Source of the DNA: an uncultured Gammaproteobacteria bacterium
Lineage (GTDB): Bacteria; Patescibacteriota; Patescibacteriia; UBA9934; CAZDDW01
Reading direction: 5' to 3'
Assembly (NCBI GenBank): GCA_964504365.1
Contig: CAZDDW010000005.1
Location: 1,630-65,629 of the forward strand
DNA: 64,000 nt
Below the pieces are notes generated by a model. That model made no database searches. It saw nothing but the letters and a program-made list of their open reading frames with translations, and had not been told where the DNA came from. Below are positions 2,543 through 36,653 of this stretch, piece by piece. Made by a program: the position numbers and the translations under genes. How positions within the stretch are numbered: position 1 is the stretch's first letter; the number at the start of each line of letters is the position of its first letter.

Positions 2543-3445
2543 TTATTCAGCTGGGACGTATTGCCGGTGGCAGGTATAGTCGTAAACATCATCAGCGACC
2601 CTTTCAGCATTATTGTCATAACTACCAGCACAGATTTCAATCAGATCAGGATGATATGTAGCTTCATCCATCTGGTAATAACTCCACCAACTATGTCCAG
2701 CGTCACCGTATCCAGTACCCACTAAATGCTCGCCGTTAAGTGCACGTGGGTAGAATGTGAAAGCAAAATCCATCATGGACGAGATTTGGTTATAATAACG
2801 GATACTGCCATAAGCCTTTCCTGGTGCATAGTCACCAATAACTAAACCAAAATTGCTAGTTGTAAAGGCAAAAAACAACTCATCATCATCTTTACAAATT
2901 CGTGACAAGTACAGATCACTGTAATAAGTCGATTCACTGGTCTCAACTAACGCAGCGATTAATATATCAATATCAATGTTAGCCGGGGCAAATTCAGTTA
3001 TCAAGTCATTAAATATTTCTGTTTCTACGTCAGCAAGATCAATGCCTCCGTAAGCCCGTTCTAGATCTGGGTGGTAATTAAGATCGTAACAATTATCAAA
3101 AGGCTCTTTATCCATGCTAGACAAATAAGTAACTTCTTGCCAAAGATTTGTCACTCCTGGATCAACATCGTCAGATGTAATTGTCCCAGAAACGTCGTAA
3201 AGAATTGTGGCATCGGTTGTTGTTTCTGGTTCGTCTGCTTCCACCAGCATCAGATCATCTGCGGTGATAAGATTTGGGTCGTTAGCCTCATCTGATTCCA
3301 TGTTTGTCCAAATCAGAGCGATTACAAGCACGGCGATGATGATAAATAAAATCGGACCAATGATCCAATGGGCGATATGTGATTTGCACTTTGACTTAAC
3401 CTCAACTTCAGGTGTGGTCTCAGTAAGGTCTTGCATATTTGGCAT
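2543..3445 (-). CDS. hypothetical membrane-anchored acidic secreted protein
   Basis: 300 aa, N-terminal TM (WIIGPILFIIIAVLVIALIW), D/E-rich ectodomain. Confidence 0.6.
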   Translation of the reverse strand: MPNMQDLTETTPEVEVKSKCKSHIAHWIIGPILFIIIAVLVIALIWTNMESDEANDPNLITADDLMLVEADEPETTTDATILYDVSGTITSDDVDPGVTNLWQEVTYLSSMDKEPFDNCYDLNYHPDLERAYGGIDLADVETEIFNDLITEFAPANIDIDILIAALVETSESTYYSDLYLSRICKDDDELFFAFTTSNFGLVIGDYAPGKAYGSIRYYNQISSMMDFAFTFYPRALNGEHLVGTGYGDAGHSWWSYYQMDEATYHPDLIEICAGSYDNNAERVADDVYDYTCHRQYVPAE

Positions 3446-7061: not shown

Positions 7062-8290
7062 AATTAGGAGACCTGATTCAATTATCTGGTGCAGGATTAA
7101 TGCGCAACAAGTCGCGCTCTATCTTGACCATGCTTGGGATTATTATTGGAATCGCTGCAGTGATGCTCATGCTTTCGATTGGAAAAGGTGCTGAAGGGCT
7201 GATTATTTCGCAGGTGGCAGATTTGGGTTCTGATTTAGTTTATGCCGAGCCAGGAAGCGGTGATGCTGATGAGGGGCCGCCAAATATTTTTGTTGAGCAG
7301 ACGCTAACCTTGGATGATGTTGAAGAACTGCGTAAGCACGATGGTTTTGTTGAGGTTGGTGCATTTTTGTATTCTGATGCTGTTGTTCAATACAGTACAG
7401 AAGAGGAGCGTTCGCAGATTGTTGGAACAACACCAGAGAATATTAGTATCTTCCCAGCAGATATGGCTGATGGGCGTTTTATTGATGAATCAGACGTTGA
7501 ATCAAATGCAACAGTGGCTGTGTTGGGAAGTCAGATTAAGCGGAAATTATTTGGTGATCAGGATCCGATTGGGCTGAGAATTAAAATTAAGAACACTCGT
7601 TTTAAAGTCATTGGTTACGTCGAAGAACAGGGAACACGCTTTTTTCAGAATTTAGATGAGCAGATTTATGTGCCAATTACCACGTTGCAAGATAAGGTTC
7701 TTGGCTTAGACTATATTAATTTCTTGGCTGCGCGCACGACTTTGCCGATTGATCTTGCTAAGGACGAAGTTCGCTTTGTGTTGCGTGATTCACATAACCT
7801 AGACAATCCAGAAGGGGATTTGAGTAAAGATGATTTCTTTGTCTCAACCCAGGAAGATGCGGTTGAGATTGTTGGTACAGTTACGAGTGTGCTAACTTTG
7901 TTGTTGTCGTCTGTTGCTGCAATTTCTTTGTTGGTTGGTGGAATTGGAATTATGAATATTATGCTTGTGTCAGTAACTGAGCGAACTCGTGAGATCGGAT
8001 TACGTAAAGCTGTTGGGGCTACTAGACAAGATATTCTAAGGCAGTTTTTGGCCGAAGCAGTTATGTTGACTTTGCTTGGGGGATTGATTGGAATTATTCT
8101 TGGTGGCGGCACTTCATTTTTGACCGCACTGGTATTGTCACAATTTTTAGAAGATTGGAAATTCTTTTTCCCGGCTGATGCTATGGTTTATGCGACCGTA
8201 ATTGCGGCGATTGTTGGTTTGGTATTTGGGATCTTCCCAGCTCGTCGAGCTGCGAAACTAGATCCGATTGATGCACTGCGGTACGAATAG
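7058..8290 (+). CDS. ABC transporter permease, FtsX/MacB-type with large periplasmic domain
   Basis: 410 aa; TM1, ~230-aa periplasmic domain, then 3 TM; translationally coupled to ATPase. Confidence 0.8.
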   Translation: MKLGDLIQLSGAGLMRNKSRSILTMLGIIIGIAAVMLMLSIGKGAEGLIISQVADLGSDLVYAEPGSGDADEGPPNIFVEQTLTLDDVEELRKHDGFVEVGAFLYSDAVVQYSTEEERSQIVGTTPENISIFPADMADGRFIDESDVESNATVAVLGSQIKRKLFGDQDPIGLRIKIKNTRFKVIGYVEEQGTRFFQNLDEQIYVPITTLQDKVLGLDYINFLAARTTLPIDLAKDEVRFVLRDSHNLDNPEGDLSKDDFFVSTQEDAVEIVGTVTSVLTLLLSSVAAISLLVGGIGIMNIMLVSVTERTREIGLRKAVGATRQDILRQFLAEAVMLTLLGGLIGIILGGGTSFLTALVLSQFLEDWKFFFPADAMVYATVIAAIVGLVFGIFPARRAAKLDPIDALRYE

Positions 8291-24077: not shown

Positions 24078-24596
24078 ATGCCTAATCCGTTGCGGAAAAA
24101 TACAGCCGAAGAAGTAAAGCCAGAGGTTGCACCCGTTGCTAAGCCTGAAGTTGAGGTAAAAAAGGAGGTTGCTGAAAAACCAGTGGAAGCGCCTAAGGAA
24201 GTTAGAAAAGACGATGAGGTTGCTGAGGTGTCACGTAAGGCTGCGCCGGCCCAAGCGAAGGATGATCAGGTAAGTGTTCTTCCTGAAGAAGACGCGCTGA
24301 CCGAAGAGGTTGAGGATATTTTAGAAGAAGATTTGGACGAAATGTATCATCAGTTACCACCGGACAAACAGCTTGAATTCAAGACTAAAGGTGAAGAAAC
24401 GGTTGGAATGATTACTCAGATGGTTGAATCAACTAAAGTGAAGAGTGGTAAGATTGTTGGCTGGATCAAGGGTTGGTTAAAGTTGATTCCAGGAGTAAAT
24501 AAATTTTTCTTAGAACAAGAGGCAAAAATAAAAACAGATAAAATTCTCTTACTTGCTGATGAAGAAAAAAAGAAGCGGGGAGAGATGATTGATTAA
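24078..24596 (+). CDS. hypothetical acidic protein with amphipathic C-terminal segment, upstream of T4CP-like ATPase
   Basis: 172 aa; KPEVxxKxEV repeats; overlaps next gene by 8 nt. Confidence 0.5.
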   Translation: MPNPLRKNTAEEVKPEVAPVAKPEVEVKKEVAEKPVEAPKEVRKDDEVAEVSRKAAPAQAKDDQVSVLPEEDALTEEVEDILEEDLDEMYHQLPPDKQLEFKTKGEETVGMITQMVESTKVKSGKIVGWIKGWLKLIPGVNKFFLEQEAKIKTDKILLLADEEKKKRGEMID

Positions 24597-27159
24597 CATG
24601 ATTTTGCAAGCACAATTTGGTATTGAACAAACGGCTGAGCTAGGGTTAGCTCCTGACCTAACTGGTCAGGCCACATCCTTGCTTCCGTTTTTGATCGTTC
24701 TGGCTGTCCTGGCAGTTATTTTTATTATTGTTTTATTTTCAGTACGTGCTTGGTTACGACGTCGAACTCGCGCCCATGGAGCCTCGTTTGAGCGTGTTGT
24801 TATTCTGGTGGCTATTCCAAAGTTTAAGAGTCAAGAAGATACTAAAAAGGAAGGCACACAGGATGTTCAGCAGCTTATTGATGATGCGGAAAGTTTTTTT
24901 GCAGCTGTTGGTGGATTAAAATCTCAAAAGGGAATTGTTAAATGGTTTACAGGTCGCAATGATGCAATGACTTTTGAAATCGTCACCCATGAAGGGCTGA
25001 CTAAATTTTATTTTTCTGTTCCGCGATCGGTAAAAGATTATGTTGAAGAGCAGTTGTTGGCCCGTTATCCAGATGCACATATTGAGGAAATGGAAGATTT
25101 TAATATTTTTAATCCAACCGGAGCGATTGTTGGTAGTTATCTAACTTTCAAGCGCCCATACGCCTTTCCGATCAAGACTTATAAGAAAATGGAGAACGAT
25201 CCGCTGGATGGTCTAACAAATGCACTTTCTAAAGTGCCTAAGGATGCTGGTGTGGCGATTCAGTTTGTTGCTCGTTCAGCGCGGCCGGAATGGCGTAAGC
25301 GTGGTTTGAAAATTGCCCGTAGCATGCAGCAAGGAATGAAAATGGAAGATGCTATTAAGGGTAAGAAGAAAGGGAAGAAGGGTGTTGTTCAGGATCTGTT
25401 TGGTTCAACCAAGCCAGAACAACAAGTCGAAAAAACTCCGTATCGATTGTCACCGTTGGAAGAAGAGGCGGTAAAGGGCCTTGAGGAAAAGGCGTCCAAG
25501 GCTGGTCTGAGTTTGAATGTGCGCATTGTTGCTTCATCACAAAATGCAGCTGCTGCTCAACAAGCGTTAAATAATGTCATTTCTTCTTTTGCCCAATACA
25601 ACGTTTATCAGTTTGGAAATAATTTTTCAAAAAAGGTTCCGCGTTCTGCAAAACGGATTGTCCGTGATTTTATTTATCGACATTTTGATGAGAAGTTTAA
25701 GATTGTTGTTAACGCGGAAGAGATGGCTAGTTTGTGGCACTTGCCACTACCAACCACAGAAACACCGAACATTCACTGGCTTGGTGCTCGCCGTGCATCT
25801 GCACCGCCAACTGTGCCAAGCGAAGGTGATTTGTATTTAGGAATAAATGAGTTCCGTGGAATTAAAAAGAAATGTTACATGAAACGCGCCGACCGGCAGC
25901 GACACATGTATATCATTGGTAAATCTGGTACTGGTAAATCTGTTTCCATGCGCAGCATGATTGTTCAAGATATTAAGAATGGTGAAGGTGTTTGTGTTGT
26001 TGATCCTCATGGTGATTTGGTAGAATCCGTTCTCGGACACATTCCTGAAGAACGCATTGATGATGTTATTGTTTTTAATCCAAGTGATTTAGAACGTCCA
26101 ATGGGATTGAACATGTTAGAGGCTAAGGGTCCGGATCAGATGGACTTTGTGGTGCAGGAGATGATTGCTATTTTCTATATGTTGTTCCCACCGGAAATGA
26201 TTGGGCCATTGTTTGAGCACTACATGCGAAACGTTATGCTGACCTTAATGTCTGACCAGGAAAATCCAGGTACGATCGTTGAAATTCCACGCATGTTCTC
26301 TGACCAAACGTTTGCTGATGGTTGGATTAAGAAGGTTAAAGATCCGGTTGTTCGAGCTTATTGGGAAAAAGAAATGGCCAAGACTTCAGATTTTCACAAG
26401 TCTGAAATGCTTGGTTATCTGATTTCCAAAGTTGGTCGTTTTGTTGGAAACGAAATGATGCGTAACATCATCGGACAATCAAAATCAGCTTTTGATTTTC
26501 GTGAAGTGATGGATAAACAAAAGATTTTACTGGTGAATTTGTCTAAAGGTAAAACTGGTGAGGTCAACTCAAGTTTGCTCGGAATGATTATTGTTTCTAA
26601 GTTGCAGATGGCCGCTATGGGCCGGGCAGACATGCCAGAAGAAGAGCGCAAAGATTTTTACTTGTACATGGATGAGTTTCAGAACTTTGTCACTGAATCG
26701 ATCGCCACGATTCTGTCTGAGGCTCGTAAGTATCGTTTAGATCTGATCATGGCTCACCAGTATTTGGGACAGTTGATTAGTGAAGGTGGAAAGACTGAGG
26801 TGCGTGATGCAGTGCTTGGTAACGTGGGAACAATGATGGTTTGTCGTGTTGGTGTAGAAGATACAGAGGTTTTGGCCAAAGAGTACGAACCAGTATTTTC
26901 TGGGTATGATTTGGTAAATGCAGACAAGTTTACTTGGTACGTAAAGATGATTGTGGATAATTCTACACAAAAGCCATTTACCATGAAAAGTCCTTGGACA
27001 GACAATGGAGACACTAAGTTGGCAGAGTCAATCAAGGAGCTTTCCCGCTTAAAATACGGTCGAGACAGGGGAGTTGTTGAGGCTGATATTATGGAACGCA
27101 CGCAGCTTGGAGCAACGAATACCGCACCTCCGCCACCAACTGGGGAGAGTACGGCCTAG
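24589..27159 (+). CDS. VirD4/TraD/TraG-like type IV coupling-protein family P-loop ATPase (membrane anchored)
   Basis: 856 aa; N-terminal 2 TM; Walker A IIGKSGTGKSV; Walker B FYLYMDEFQNF; C-terminal LDLIMAHQYLGQL motif typical of TraG/VirD4. Confidence 0.6.
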   Translation: MINMILQAQFGIEQTAELGLAPDLTGQATSLLPFLIVLAVLAVIFIIVLFSVRAWLRRRTRAHGASFERVVILVAIPKFKSQEDTKKEGTQDVQQLIDDAESFFAAVGGLKSQKGIVKWFTGRNDAMTFEIVTHEGLTKFYFSVPRSVKDYVEEQLLARYPDAHIEEMEDFNIFNPTGAIVGSYLTFKRPYAFPIKTYKKMENDPLDGLTNALSKVPKDAGVAIQFVARSARPEWRKRGLKIARSMQQGMKMEDAIKGKKKGKKGVVQDLFGSTKPEQQVEKTPYRLSPLEEEAVKGLEEKASKAGLSLNVRIVASSQNAAAAQQALNNVISSFAQYNVYQFGNNFSKKVPRSAKRIVRDFIYRHFDEKFKIVVNAEEMASLWHLPLPTTETPNIHWLGARRASAPPTVPSEGDLYLGINEFRGIKKKCYMKRADRQRHMYIIGKSGTGKSVSMRSMIVQDIKNGEGVCVVDPHGDLVESVLGHIPEERIDDVIVFNPSDLERPMGLNMLEAKGPDQMDFVVQEMIAIFYMLFPPEMIGPLFEHYMRNVMLTLMSDQENPGTIVEIPRMFSDQTFADGWIKKVKDPVVRAYWEKEMAKTSDFHKSEMLGYLISKVGRFVGNEMMRNIIGQSKSAFDFREVMDKQKILLVNLSKGKTGEVNSSLLGMIIVSKLQMAAMGRADMPEEERKDFYLYMDEFQNFVTESIATILSEARKYRLDLIMAHQYLGQLISEGGKTEVRDAVLGNVGTMMVCRVGVEDTEVLAKEYEPVFSGYDLVNADKFTWYVKMIVDNSTQKPFTMKSPWTDNGDTKLAESIKELSRLKYGRDRGVVEADIMERTQLGATNTAPPPPTGESTA

Positions 27160-33421: not shown

Positions 33422-33450
33422 TTGATATTTTTTGTTAAATAAGTTATACT
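33422..33450 (+). promoter_or_regulatory. promoter TTGATA-17-TATACT for tRNA-Gln
   Basis: attgatattttttgttaaataagttatact. Confidence 0.55.
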
Positions 33451-33472
33451 CTCGGCGATAAATAAAATTTAT

Positions 33473-33546
33473 TCCGGGATCGTCTAATGGCAGGACACGT
33501 GGTTCTGGTCCACGGTATCGGGGTTCGAATCCCTGTCCCGGAGCCA
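33473..33546 (+). tRNA. tRNA-Gln (anticodon CUG), CCA encoded
   Basis: acceptor TCCGGGA/TCCCGGA, anticodon stem CGTGG/CCACG with loop TTCTGGT, T-arm GGGGTTCGAATCCC, GCCA 3' end. Confidence 0.85.
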
Positions 33547-33703
33547 AGGAAAACTGCTCAGCTTTTGCTGAACGGTTTTTCTTTTCTGTCTGGACCATGG
33601 GTTGAGAACCTCGCTGGTTCGCCCGGCGAGGATAGCGAGAAGAAAGTTTAAGCTCATTTAAACTTTCTCGAGCGACACAGCCGGTCCTTGGCCGTAGGCC
33701 AAA

Positions 33704-33718
33704 AATCCCTGTCCCGGA
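33704..33718 (+). repeat. 15-nt direct repeat of tRNA-Gln 3' end, followed by terminator 33725-33758
   Basis: aatccctgtcccgga identical to 33528-33542. Confidence 0.75.
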
Positions 33719-33787
33719 ATCAAAAGGGCCGCACTTTAAAAAGTGTGGCTTTTTTGTTATGATAAGCAGAGAAAATAATATATTTTT

Positions 33788-35281
33788 ATGGTCAGAAAAA
33801 GAAAGTTGGCGATACTGGTCGCCATAATCGCTGCTCTTGTAGTTGGGATAGCAGTAATAATATTTTTAATCACAGATGGGGGCGAGGAAACCGGAGGGGT
33901 TGATTGTGATATCAATCAGGATGGGCAAGTTGATGAGCGTGAAAGTCGATTGTGCTTTGAGGATGATATTTTAGGTATTGATCAAAGCGATGGTCGTGTA
34001 GAGGAAGAAGGAACGATTGATTTGCGTTTGCCGTCAGCAGGAGCCGATGGTGGAACTTTGGCCGTTCGGCTGTATATTCCAGATGAGCCGCGGTATGAGG
34101 AAGGGGCACCGGTGATTATTTGGGTACCTGGAGGGTATGAAATGAAAGGGATTAATCATGATTTGCCAAAGACTGCTGATGATGTCATTGTGGCCACGTT
34201 TATCTTTCCTGGTGTGACTGATGAATGGTCAGGCTTTTATTCAGATGGTGAATACGATTGGCGCGGAGAGGATTGTATTCGTGCTATGGCTGATGTGATC
34301 CTATTTGCTGCTGGCCAGCTTGAAGATTCAGAAGGGAATACTATCGATGATTTGTCACCGGTACCAGTGATCCATGACAACATTGGAGCGATTGGTGCAT
34401 CAAACGGCGGTAACTTGCCTGTGGCTGCAGCTGCTTTACATGGACATGAATTCGCAGACTATTTTCGCTATATTATTCAATGGGAAACGCCAGTTTCCTC
34501 TCAGGTGGCCAACCGGGACTTCGGTCGGGTTTGGGTAAAAGAAGGCGGTCCAAAGAACGATTATTTTAATTTGCGCTACGCTGGGTATGGTGACTATGAA
34601 TTCGCCAGCGACTATTCAGATTTAACTTACGATCCAAATCAGGAGTATCATCCAATTTTTCACGATGGTGACGGCGACGGAGTTTACACAACTACACCAG
34701 ACTATTTTGGAACATCGATCAGCGGTCCTGATGTGGATTCTGATGGCATGTTGTCACTTGATGAAGATTTTCCTTTGGATGGATATCAGGGCGGGGAAGA
34801 TGGAGATGTTTGGTTTTTCTCACGTCCGGTAACCCATGCCATGGCTGATAATAATATTTTTGCTGATTATGGATGGCCAGATGATGTTGCTACTCCAAGC
34901 CAAGCCGATGCCTATTGGGATGTTCGTGAATCGGTTTATCTTTACGAAGATGCGTTAGATAATATTCCAGATCTTGAGGCCATGGTTCTGGCCGGGGTTG
35001 TTGATCACGTGCAGACCAACTCAGAAAAGCCGCACATTCGCCAAGCACTTGAGGGGTGGCTTGATAATGGTGTGTCTTGGGTGCAACTGAACCCAAGTCC
35101 GGAATACATGGTTGAGGCATATCCTGGATATCGGCGTCGTGATGATTTGCCAGATAATGTTCCAAACAAGGCTCCAAAAGATTGGGTCGATATCGAAGCT
35201 TACTCTATACCAGAAGATATAGAAGAGCCTGCTTATCAACTCGGTGCTGTTTATCAAATGATGGATCGCGCACAAAATTAA
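33788..35281 (+). CDS. membrane-anchored secreted protein, possible alpha/beta-hydrolase-like (paralog 1)
   Basis: 497 aa; N-terminal TM; GAIGASNGGN (GxSxG-like elbow); acidic. Confidence 0.45.
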   Translation: MVRKRKLAILVAIIAALVVGIAVIIFLITDGGEETGGVDCDINQDGQVDERESRLCFEDDILGIDQSDGRVEEEGTIDLRLPSAGADGGTLAVRLYIPDEPRYEEGAPVIIWVPGGYEMKGINHDLPKTADDVIVATFIFPGVTDEWSGFYSDGEYDWRGEDCIRAMADVILFAAGQLEDSEGNTIDDLSPVPVIHDNIGAIGASNGGNLPVAAAALHGHEFADYFRYIIQWETPVSSQVANRDFGRVWVKEGGPKNDYFNLRYAGYGDYEFASDYSDLTYDPNQEYHPIFHDGDGDGVYTTTPDYFGTSISGPDVDSDGMLSLDEDFPLDGYQGGEDGDVWFFSRPVTHAMADNNIFADYGWPDDVATPSQADAYWDVRESVYLYEDALDNIPDLEAMVLAGVVDHVQTNSEKPHIRQALEGWLDNGVSWVQLNPSPEYMVEAYPGYRRRDDLPDNVPNKAPKDWVDIEAYSIPEDIEEPAYQLGAVYQMMDRAQN

Positions 35282-35282
35282 T

Positions 35283-36653
35283 ATGAAACCAAGAAATCAA
35301 AAATTACTTTTATTCTTTGTTCTTCCAGCTGTTATTCTGATTGCGGCTGTGTTGATTGTCTGGCTTCTGCTTCCAGATGCTGTTGAAACACCACCTGAAC
35401 AAACTTATGGCCCAGGTGAAGAATTTGTTACGCATGTTAATTCAAAAGGTATTGGCGAGGTTGCTATTTTGGTCAGTATTCCCGAAGTACCACGCTATCC
35501 AGAAGGCGCACCAATTATTTTTGATGTCTCAACCTGGTTTGCTGGGTTAGTTGGTTTTCATGACAAATTTGATGCCACAGCCATTGGTGCAATCAATATC
35601 AATCATCTTTGGCCTGGTAATTGTGATCACATTCATGATATTTGCTCTGATGGTGAAAACGATTATGGTGGACCTGATTCTATGACTTCGTTGCGTGATG
35701 CAATCCGTTTTGCTGTTGGTCAGATTCCAAACGTTGATGGCTACTATATTGATGATCTACTTGAAGTAACTCCGTTGCTGGATAATGTTGGACTCTACGC
35801 TTCTTCACACTCTGGTGTTGTGGCCACCAATGTAATAGCGTACTATGGCGACGAATTTCCAGAGGTTAGGTATTTTATCGGGCGAGAGAACCCGACCTTG
35901 CCAGAAATGTATCCGCTAGAAATTGGGCACTGGGGTGAAAGACGTCAGCCGATTTATAATCCATTTTATAATGCAGATGGCTATGCTCGTGATTCGATCG
36001 ATGTTGATTATTCAACGGTTGGTTGGATTAAGAATTCAGAATATCCAGAGGGTAGGCCATATCACAAGGTTGAAGGTGGTCAGGATTATGTTCTTGATGA
36101 TAAAGGTCCGAACATGTGGGGTAAGCGCTACTTTTCAATTAATCTGACACAGGCAATTTGGGATAACGAAGGTTTTACAAAAGCAACCTGGCCAGAAGAT
36201 GTGGCAACACCTGATGAAGTGAAGGATGTTTGGCCATATCGAACAGCAGCAACTAATTATCCATTGCTTGTCGATACTTTGCCGGACGACTTCAAAGTCA
36301 TGCTTGTTTTTTCTTTTGATGATCATGTACAAACCGCTCTAGATAGACCACATATTCGGCAGGCCTATGATGGGTTTTCTAAGACCGCTGGTGTAGATTG
36401 GGTTCGTTTGAATCCTGATTTAGAATATGCACAGCAGCTTGATCCTGGTTTCAGATCAGCACAATTTTCTGATAATGCAGCTAATACTGAACCAGATGAC
36501 TGGGGTGATTCAAAGGGTTGGGGTCATCCGTATTCAGGAGACACAATAGAGCCAATGTCACAAGCTAGTATGGCAGAGATGTGTGACCGCGTGCAATTTG
36601 ATAATTGGTCGGATAATTTAGATAGTGTTTTATACGAATACCAAGTACAATAG
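35283..36653 (+). CDS. membrane-anchored secreted protein, paralog 2 of 33788-35281
   Basis: shared blocks PRYxEGAPxI, DHVQT...PHIRQA...W.LNP..EY. Confidence 0.45.
   Translation: MKPRNQKLLLFFVLPAVILIAAVLIVWLLLPDAVETPPEQTYGPGEEFVTHVNSKGIGEVAILVSIPEVPRYPEGAPIIFDVSTWFAGLVGFHDKFDATAIGAININHLWPGNCDHIHDICSDGENDYGGPDSMTSLRDAIRFAVGQIPNVDGYYIDDLLEVTPLLDNVGLYASSHSGVVATNVIAYYGDEFPEVRYFIGRENPTLPEMYPLEIGHWGERRQPIYNPFYNADGYARDSIDVDYSTVGWIKNSEYPEGRPYHKVEGGQDYVLDDKGPNMWGKRYFSINLTQAIWDNEGFTKATWPEDVATPDEVKDVWPYRTAATNYPLLVDTLPDDFKVMLVFSFDDHVQTALDRPHIRQAYDGFSKTAGVDWVRLNPDLEYAQQLDPGFRSAQFSDNAANTEPDDWGDSKGWGHPYSGDTIEPMSQASMAEMCDRVQFDNWSDNLDSVLYEYQVQ

Follow-up and report, generated by a model that had tools for sequence, protein, structure and literature searches.

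Two tRNA-associated inserts in a Patescibacteriota contig belong to a cross-phylum family of small structured elements with an antisense copy of the tRNA T-arm

The stretch analyzed here, called the window, comprises 64,000 nucleotides of contig CAZDDW010000005.1 (assembly GCA_964504365.1, positions 1,630 to 65,629) from an uncultured bacterium of the Patescibacteriota. It contains two tRNA genes. Behind each of them we found, in this order, a terminator, a noncoding insert of ~130 nt, a repeat of the tRNA 3′ end, and another terminator. The reading we favor, at about even odds, is that the inserts are copies of a small non-autonomous mobile element, which encodes no protein, bears a guide, and integrates into tRNA genes in their 3′ part. 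An earlier note on this DNA, made from the sequence alone, had pointed out the repeated tRNA 3′ ends. It overlooked that the 5′ end of the insert is antisense to the tRNA T-arm, that the core stands exactly between positions 57 and 58 of the T-arm copy, and that the family extends across phyla.

The members follow a common plan. From the 5′ end, it consists of the reverse complement of tRNA positions 68 to 59, the dinucleotide GA, GAACC, a loop of 3 to 9 nt, GGTTCG, the core, tRNA positions 58 to 76, and a terminator. When members were compared with their own tRNAs, the 17 nt ahead of the P2 loop proved to be the reverse complement of tRNA positions 52 to 68 except at 57 and 58, where G57 and A58 oppose the A and G of the guide 5′-GA-3′ in a tandem G·A arrangement. 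GGTTCG is the nearly universal T-arm sequence at positions 52 to 57, and the core is joined exactly between G57 and A58 of this sense copy of the T-arm. The core runs from the P3 5′ strand through a purine-rich linker, AGCGAG, the variable hairpin P4, CGAGCGA, and a linker to the P3 3′ strand and the variable hairpin P5, with AGCGAG and CGAGCGA pairing as GC, tandem G·A, and G-C. Comparison of the family members showed that the core is followed by a copy of the 3′ end of the upstream tRNA, starting at about position 58. The element measures ~130 nt, or ~130 to 190 bp with its terminator, and has a conserved core of ~90 nt; there is no open reading frame (ORF) in the insert. The predicted fold is a four-way junction formed by P1 (the guide with positions 59 to 68), P2 (GAACC with GGTTC), P3-P4, and P5.

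All features of the two window loci lie on the + strand. At the Gln locus, a σ70-like promoter, TTGATA-17-TATACT (33422 to 33450), is the sole promoter-like site upstream of the entire module. The host or target gene, tRNA-Gln(CTG) (33473 to 33546; ARAGORN and Rfam), is intact with its CCA encoded, and it is followed by the first intrinsic terminator (33551 to 33585), with a stem at 33558 to 33571 and then a T-run. The sequence that the earlier note gave as the start of the insert, ctggaccatggg, is antisense to the T-stem/acceptor region of the tRNA and has partly decayed. The guide, ggaccatgggtt (33592 to 33603), forms the P1 5′ strand and is a partly decayed antisense of positions 59 to 68. 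The GA dinucleotide, the P2 hairpin GAACC-tcgct-GGTTC, and a G come next (33604 to 33621); here, too, GGTTCG equals tRNA positions 52 to 57 and GAACC is the antisense of GGTTC. The conserved core (33622 to 33687) contains P3 (CCGGC at 33623 to 33627, pairing with GCCGG at 33680 to 33684), AGCGAG (33634 to 33639), P4 (33640 to 33668), and CGAGCGA (33669 to 33675), and the arms of its hairpin (33641 to 33651 and 33658 to 33668) form 11 bp with 100% complementarity. Downstream of the P5 hairpin TTGGCC-GTA-GGCCAA (33688 to 33702) lies the copy of the tRNA-Gln 3′ end from T-loop position 58 onward (33704 to 33723), which is also the P1 3′ strand, and then a second terminator, a hairpin with a T-run read from the sequence (33726 to 33756).

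The repeat at this locus, AATCCCTGTCCCGGA, is present at 33528 to 33542 and again at 33704 to 33718, with ~115 nt separating the first terminator from the second copy; the identity is 18/20 (90%) when the repeat is extended to 20 nt. The first 15 nt of the downstream copy are thus identical to the tRNA, and its discriminator and CCA are mutated (AATCA versus GCCA). The Gln guide, ggaCCatgggtt, carries an indel relative to the intact GGACAGGGT in the related locus L092 (numbers with an L denote loci compared here), and the Gln repeat lacks CCA. Judged by this indel and the mutated CCA, the window Gln copy is older and partly decayed. It has P3 and P5 in common with the copy at L086. The repeat, terminator, insert, and hairpin that the earlier note had reported behind tRNA-Gln were all found where it placed them.

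The Glu locus has the same layout. A promoter, TTGACA-17-TATACT (2212 to 2240), precedes the intact tRNA-Glu(CTC) gene (2260 to 2334; ARAGORN and Rfam), which is followed by the first terminator (2338 to 2368; stem 2344 to 2357 plus T-run). The guide, ttccatggggat (2371 to 2382), is antisense to tRNA-Glu positions 59 to 69 and pairs with 2483 to 2493 in 11 pairs, one of them G·U. GA, P2 (GAAgCCC-gaat-GGGTTC), and a G occupy 2383 to 2402, and the core (2403 to 2466) contains P3 (ATTG at 2403 to 2406, pairing with CAAT at 2463 to 2466), AGCGAG (2415 to 2420), P4 (2421 to 2448), and CGAGCGA (2449 to 2455). The P5 hairpin CCCGCCG-t-CGGCGGG (2467 to 2481) leads into a perfect 21-nt copy of the tRNA-Glu 3′ end, from G57 to CCA plus A (2481 to 2501), which is also the P1 3′ strand; this repeat, GATTCCCCGTGGGGTCACCAA, stands at 2315 to 2335 and 2481 to 2501. 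The second terminator (2499 to 2538) has arms at 2499 to 2513 and 2518 to 2532 and a T-run. With its 11-bp P1 and perfect 21-nt repeat, the Glu copy looks intact. P4 is hypervariable even where P3 and P5 are nearly identical (window 33640 to 33668 and 2421 to 2448, for example), but its base, GAA...UUC, is retained, as are tips that resemble hexaloops (GCUUGC, GUUUAC, and AUUUAU among them). A comparison of P4 with the tRNA, the terminator, and the flanks gave no systematic match.

The parallel between the two inserts that had been suggested held when they were aligned, as both contain GGTTCG-N12-AGCGAG-hairpin-CGAGCGA. This composite motif, with a hairpin of 28 to 29 nt, is present at two places only in the 64 kb; the number expected from 100 shuffles is 0.00. 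We also scanned the window with R1, a covariance model of the family that did not include P3. It scored the two inserts at 83.3 and 75.8 bits, and the next match reached 13.9 bits (filters off).

To look for relatives, we used a single 24-base pattern, GAGAA-N5-10-GGTTCG-N12-AGCGAG-N22-36-CGAGCGA, fixed from three members, which brought up ~50 copies beyond the window from public genomes and metagenomes. In 185,579 species genomes (GTDB contigs, one genome per species), 28/29 matches were real, with ~0.4 expected by chance, and so were 23/25 in the metagenomes. Three matches (L068, L109, and L113) had neither the hairpins nor a model match and were dropped as chance. Viral contigs yielded one locus only, L007; a looser pattern applied to them returned this same true relative and 59/60 matches by chance in GC-rich coding DNA. 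R1 recognized 62 copies from 57 sources; at ten loci, a second copy in tandem was among them. The hosts were Saccharibacteria, Gracilibacteria, Peribacteria, Paceibacter, other Patescibacteria, and Alistipes/Rikenellaceae, besides the one viral contig. A few host metagenome-assembled genomes were labelled Gammaproteobacteria or Nitrospirae, and these may be misbinned.

A same-strand tRNA gene lay directly upstream in 42 cases, usually with 47 to 65 nt between the tRNA end and the motif, and 14 anticodon types were represented: Ser-GGA/TGA/CGA, Met, Asn, Arg-GCG, Val-CAC/TAC, Glu-CTC/TTC, Tyr, Gln, Lys, and Gly. The survey of other tRNA loci was therefore positive in both species genomes and metagenomes, and the proposed family of tRNA-associated elements is borne out by this recurrence of the architecture. 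The direct repeat of the tRNA 3′ end, starting at T-loop position 57 or 58, was also present in ~40 related loci, with a length of ~10 to ~68 bp across the family. Rfam 15, whose models cover ribozymes, introns, tmRNA, tRNA-like RNAs, and retron and OMEGA RNAs, found tRNAs only in the window at its gathering thresholds, and no family fits the element; searches of 400 nt at both loci with E ≤ 10 gave only subthreshold noise. A Saccharibacteria member had no BLAST match among INPHARED phages or PLSDB plasmids, and a full-text literature search turned up no published description of the element.

The helices are backed by compensatory changes well above controls. In the R1 alignment, 89% of cells were paired, and the covariation score was 0.402, compared with 0.145 in shuffled alignments (0/500) and ≤0.135 with slid partners. 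P1 had double-sided changes at all 9 pairs, and partner permutation gave 0/500 for P1 and 0/2000 for P3. The complementarity between guide and tRNA was 7.4/10 for cognate and 5.3/10 for non-cognate pairs. On the tRNA-sense strand, G·U outnumbered A·C by 72 to 32, so it is the sense strand that folds, either as RNA or as single-stranded DNA (ssDNA). The family is thus a structured RNA or ssDNA element.

We found the element to vary in number, position, and state of preservation. Orthologous tRNA-Ser(GGA) loci of Saccharibacteria have one unit or two or more, with differing unit-borne terminators, and tandem arrays or differing copy numbers were seen at L061, L062, L064, L075, L076, L077, L093, L095, L099, and L100. 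Eleven neighboring tRNA genes in the fetched loci had no element, and nothing stood behind tRNA-Gln(CTG) in L124, a relative of the window organism. Nearly identical cores occur with different guides at different tRNAs, and a subfamily with ACCGGACGACGA occurs with nine anticodon types; P3 is common to L073 (Asn) and L114 (Arg). In L102, a guide of the Ser-GGA type stands at tRNA-Ser(CGA), and the Ser(GGA) gene of the same genome is empty. The family also includes truncated and decayed copies.

The data directly show how the element is built, that its helices covary, and that its guides match their targets; they also show that it occurs with many tRNA types and in several phyla, varies in tandem copy number, is patchily distributed, and has decayed in some copies. 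Mobile or selfish behavior is favored because of the tandem copy-number differences, the empty tRNAs, the like cores at unlike tRNAs, the decayed copies, and the cross-phylum spread. For such an element, the anatomy suggests a crossover at 57/58. A folded single strand, either RNA or tRNA-sense ssDNA, would pair through its guide with segment 52 to 68 of the tRNA gene (T-loop/T-stem/acceptor), and a trans-acting recombinase, or less likely the core itself, would recombine at or near G57/A58. The inserted unit would then be the 58-to-76 copy, terminator, guide, GGTTCG, and core, so that the tRNA would stay intact and terminated while its displaced native 3′ end, now downstream, would form the direct repeat. 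More tentatively, the elements could represent a guide-programmed class free of protein genes, in which a ~90-nt core, catalytic or a handle for a widespread host enzyme, is delivered to G57/A58 by a reprogrammable antisense guide of 15 to 17 nt; we regard this as possible and well short of probable.

Several results weigh against a mobile element. We found no recombinase, excised form, strain-level empty/filled pair, or autonomous relative, and the intergenic region was 100% identical in the six strain contigs of the window organism in which it is covered. A move to a new tRNA needs the guide and the repeat to change together, which the proposed mechanism does not account for. The repeats at L066, L085, L097, L070, and the window Gln locus span only the guide-paired part rather than the full native 3′ end, and such short repeats fit an insertion after the tRNA as well as a crossover in the T-loop. 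Old copies keep the P1 pairing, with guide and repeat covarying apart from the tRNA (L066 versus L085), which could reflect a host-selected RNA function. The consensus fold of both window copies lies 10 to 14 kcal/mol above the unconstrained minimum free energy, and nearest-neighbor folding favors alternative local hairpins. Lastly, L092 and L102 bear an extra solo guide past the last terminator, which a simple circle-integration model does not predict. These solo guides, GACAGGGT and GAGAGGAT (L092, − strand, ~1225 to 1214; L102), are not followed by GAGAAC, and the direct repeat of L092 and L102 spans the tRNA 3′ end, terminator, and guide (~68 bp).

The alternative that survives best, which we still consider rather unlikely, is a structured noncoding RNA (ncRNA) retained by the host and made by read-through of the tRNA terminator, with P1-P2 mimicking the T-arm/acceptor stack and a tRNA-like NCCA tail matured by tRNA-processing enzymes. 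It would serve as a decoy, as a source of RNA resembling 3′-tRNA fragments, or as a guide for an activity at G57/A58. The strong covariation and the excess of G·U over A·C on the tRNA-sense strand agree with such an RNA, as do the constant co-orientation of the element with the tRNA and the terminator after it. So do the survival of P1 where the rest of the repeat has decayed, the guide-repeat covariation apart from the tRNA at L066/L085, the complete NCCA end retained in many repeats, and the conserved purine-rich junctions and tandem G·A motifs typical of functional RNA cores. However, it would lack a promoter of its own and lie directly behind a strong terminator; at neither window locus did we find a promoter-like site between the first terminator and the element, the tRNA promoter being the only one. 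Nor does a host RNA sit well with the patchy occurrence among the tRNAs of one genome and among relatives, the tandem, truncated, and decayed copies, or the association with unrelated tRNA identities in unrelated phyla with no linked gene.

It is improbable that larger prophages or islands integrating at tRNA genes left the inserts as scars, with the guide and core as an attP arm that came to lie beside the displaced 3′ end (attR) and remained there after internal deletion. What the loci display, a tRNA 3′ end repeated directly from the T-loop on, is the classical mark left by an integrase. In addition, the phage-like contig L007/L096, which has terminase and methylase genes, carries a member beside a tRNA-3′-end-like segment, ACCTTCCCTCTCCACCA, and a terminator, with no upstream tRNA gene; this arrangement would be the expected look of an attP. 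However, the scar explanation requires ~50 independent deletions that all end exactly at the terminator/guide junction. The small copies have no adjoining integrase or phage remnant, no integrase was recognized near the module in the phage-like contig, the core is conserved between phyla, which is unexpected for integrase arm sites, and complete small units form tandem arrays.

Some further observations concern the phage-borne copy and the copies without an upstream tRNA gene. L007 ends within the element, and the phage contig could not be extended beyond it; a search for viral relatives of the downstream ORF gave none. The end of L007 (12148) and the start of L111 fall on the same base inside the element (...aggagtcatcattgtg) in independent viral and metagenome contigs. 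The sequence continues in a third contig, L096, which points to a break in assembly at a repeat or variable junction. The tRNA-less members have a common upstream motif, (G)TGTCTCATTTGTCTC(A) (L096, 10425 to 10570; L007, 11870 to 12020; L065, ~170 to 340; L086, − strand, ~7710 to 7580; and L087, ~7690 to 7800). It is followed by ~150 nt with a tRNA-like end (GGT[TA]CTAGACCCGACTG.TC..CCA in two members), a hairpin, and the element. ARAGORN and Rfam made no call in this upstream region, which may be a tRNA-like RNA not yet annotated or an element of another kind. Pfam and PHROGs searches of the ORFs beside the tRNA-less and phage-borne copies recognized no integrase. A large serine recombinase gene (Resolvase, Recombinase, and Zn-ribbon; L072, 4877 to 6142) lies ~2.5 kb upstream of one tRNA-less copy, with genes for a Vut_1 transporter and a methyltransferase in between, and is probably unrelated to the element.

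We regard as quite improbable that the core is a small self-acting ribozyme or intron-like element that inserts, or cleaves and ligates, at G57/A58 of the guide-held T-arm with no protein catalyst. The guide pairs on both sides of the single 57|58 bond at which the core attaches, an internal-guide geometry that would hold both exons; there is no linked protein, and the junctions have conserved purines. A core-less hairpin behind tRNA-Gln in L125 (Uhrbacteria), GACAGGGAT-gcaact-ATCCCTGTC, equals the guide plus repeat and resembles a spliced or excised product. However, it is a single sighting, the core is only ~90 nt, and no similarity to Rfam ribozyme or intron families appeared even at E ≤ 10. 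A DNA copy would further need reverse transcription or DNA-level chemistry, and simple reverse splicing leaves the intact upstream tRNA unexplained. The L125 hairpin (2195 to 2240, tRNA + strand) has 19 bp, CCCCTGTAGTGACAGGGAT-gcaact-ATCCCTGTCTACTACAAGGG, and is flanked on each side by another strong hairpin; it may be a footprint of excision or else a precursor. Coincidence, or a tRNA 3′ end duplicated locally without any element family, has nothing but the small size of the repeats in its favor and a negligible chance of being right, ruled out as it is by the composite motif expectation of 0.00 in the window, the dozens of homologues behind tRNA genes elsewhere, and covariation far above controls.

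The surroundings of the two loci are those of an ordinary chromosomal region of a Patescibacterium, with housekeeping genes for DnaK/DnaJ, CysRS, AlaRS, MurJ, and DnaX; the best homologues of the window SpoU were from Uhrbacteria and Pacebacteria. A scan of 30 window ORFs found no integrase, transposase, reverse transcriptase, or recombinase domain. The neighborhoods of ~30 loci had no protein family in common beyond the synteny of close relatives and a common SLH domain. An 856-amino-acid (aa) VirD4/TraG-like type IV coupling protein (T4SS-DNA_transf and TrwB_AAD_bind) is encoded amid the housekeeping genes (24589 to 27159), and a homologous gene occupies a syntenic position in L126, an Uhrbacteria relative. 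The ORFs flanking both modules (33788 to 36653 and 2543 to 3445; 497, 456, and 300 aa) had no Pfam match, and the 497-aa product has an N-terminal hydrophobic segment resembling a signal or anchor. Both tRNA promoters (2234 to 2249 and 33444 to 33459) have a common extended −10 region, TATACTCTCG(A/G)C, which may be a lineage-specific promoter or discriminator motif.

If the inserts are mobile, they would be among the smallest site-specific insertion elements, with an explicit and exchangeable base-pairing target guide, and would offer a defined substrate for asking whether a host recombinase or the core reads this guide. A guide-programmed class, if real, would provide a natural and minimal example of site-specific insertion guided by nucleic acid. 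If the inserts are instead a host RNA, organisms whose genomes are very reduced would have a new family of RNAs that mimic tRNA. The elements account for a class of duplications in Patescibacteria and Alistipes genomes in which part of a tRNA gene is repeated, and which island-finding tools that need an integrase would probably miss. The covariance model can be used to annotate a conserved intergenic feature that has no Rfam 15 match.

Among known systems, small non-autonomous repeats such as miniature inverted-repeat transposable elements (MITEs), the palindrome-associated transposable elements (PATEs) of IS200/IS605, Correia elements, and Rickettsia palindromic elements resemble the family in being short, noncoding, multicopy, patchy, and decaying, with strong single-strand structure and a dependence on functions provided in trans. 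Our inserts are likewise short, noncoding, multicopy, and patchy; unlike MITEs and PATEs, however, they have no transposase-type terminal inverted repeats and no target duplication of fixed length. The only inverted repeat is that of the guide with the tRNA-3′ copy, which changes with the target, and the repeat length varies, so that a MITE defined by the ends of a parent transposon was rejected. IS200/IS605 elements also read their cleavage/target site by base pairing with an internal guide in folded ssDNA, but the IS608 guide has 4 nt, whereas that of the element has 15 to 17 nt and is specific for the tRNA T-arm, with no TnpA or TnpB linked. An IS200/IS605 PATE or a TnpB omega-RNA was rejected on the presence of the direct repeat, the guide of 15 to 17 nt, and the absence of TnpA/TnpB domains among the window ORFs scanned.

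Integron attC sites and the hairpin of CTX-phi attP(+), a substrate of XerCD, are similar in that a folded strand rebuilds a duplex mimicking the target, structure prevails over sequence in most helices, and small promoter-less units form arrays. The element differs from them in having no R/L boxes or extrahelical-base pattern and no IntI, and its target is a tRNA gene, not attI or dif. An attC identity was rejected, as the AAC/GTT triplets lie at the tip of the P2 hairpin, not at its base, and no IntI was among the window ORFs scanned. The bridge RNA or seekRNA of IS110 and the TIGR-Tas (tandem interspaced guide RNA) systems are also structured ncRNAs with short (~10 nt) programmable target-matching segments, and the element holds both sense and antisense segments of the same target. 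Here, in contrast, there is no adjacent IS110 recombinase or Tas (Nop-domain) gene, the units are four-way junctions of ~130 nt in place of the two loops of a bridge RNA, and the sequences are unrelated. TIGR arrays, which are found in parasitic bacteria and their phages, consist of alternating 8- to 12-nt edge and loop repeats, 9-nt spacers, and 36-nt units beside a Nop-domain Tas gene (PMC12045711). Such an array was rejected because our units measure ~130 to 190 nt, have a single guide, and lie near no gene for a Nop-domain protein.

The internal guides of group I and group II introns and the arms of the hairpin ribozyme also pair on both sides of the bond at which the core attaches; unlike the introns, the element has a far smaller core, no fit to an Rfam model, and its guide upstream of the "5′ exon" rather than inside the core. 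A retron ncRNA (msr-msd) was rejected, as no reverse transcriptase domain occurs in the window ORFs or neighbors and the a1/a2-like helix with a long variable hairpin is a formal resemblance only. Readings as a casposon-type insertion with a fixed target-site duplication, as a hammerhead, or as a hairpin ribozyme were each rejected on a defining feature.

The integrative elements that target tRNA genes, namely prophages, integrative and conjugative elements, and islands with tyrosine integrases, together with cis-mobilizable elements, their derivatives that lack an integrase, insert into the 3′ part, supply a replacement 3′ end that keeps the tRNA intact, leave a direct repeat of 15 to 25 bp from the T-loop, and accrete in tandem. 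A T-loop sublocation class of integration into tRNA genes was reportedly recognized by Williams in 2002. In the window, both tRNAs are intact and have a direct repeat of their 3′ end (15/20 nt and 21 nt), and there is no internal tyrosine or serine recombinase gene in the ORF-less insert or among the 30 window ORFs. The family differs from these integrative elements in its size of ~130 to 190 bp with no integrase nearby, its structured core found across phyla, its internal antisense copy of the target, and its T-arm copy split at 57/58. The best-supported reading is thus the logic of integrase-type elements shrunk to ~150 bp and joined to a nucleic-acid guide.

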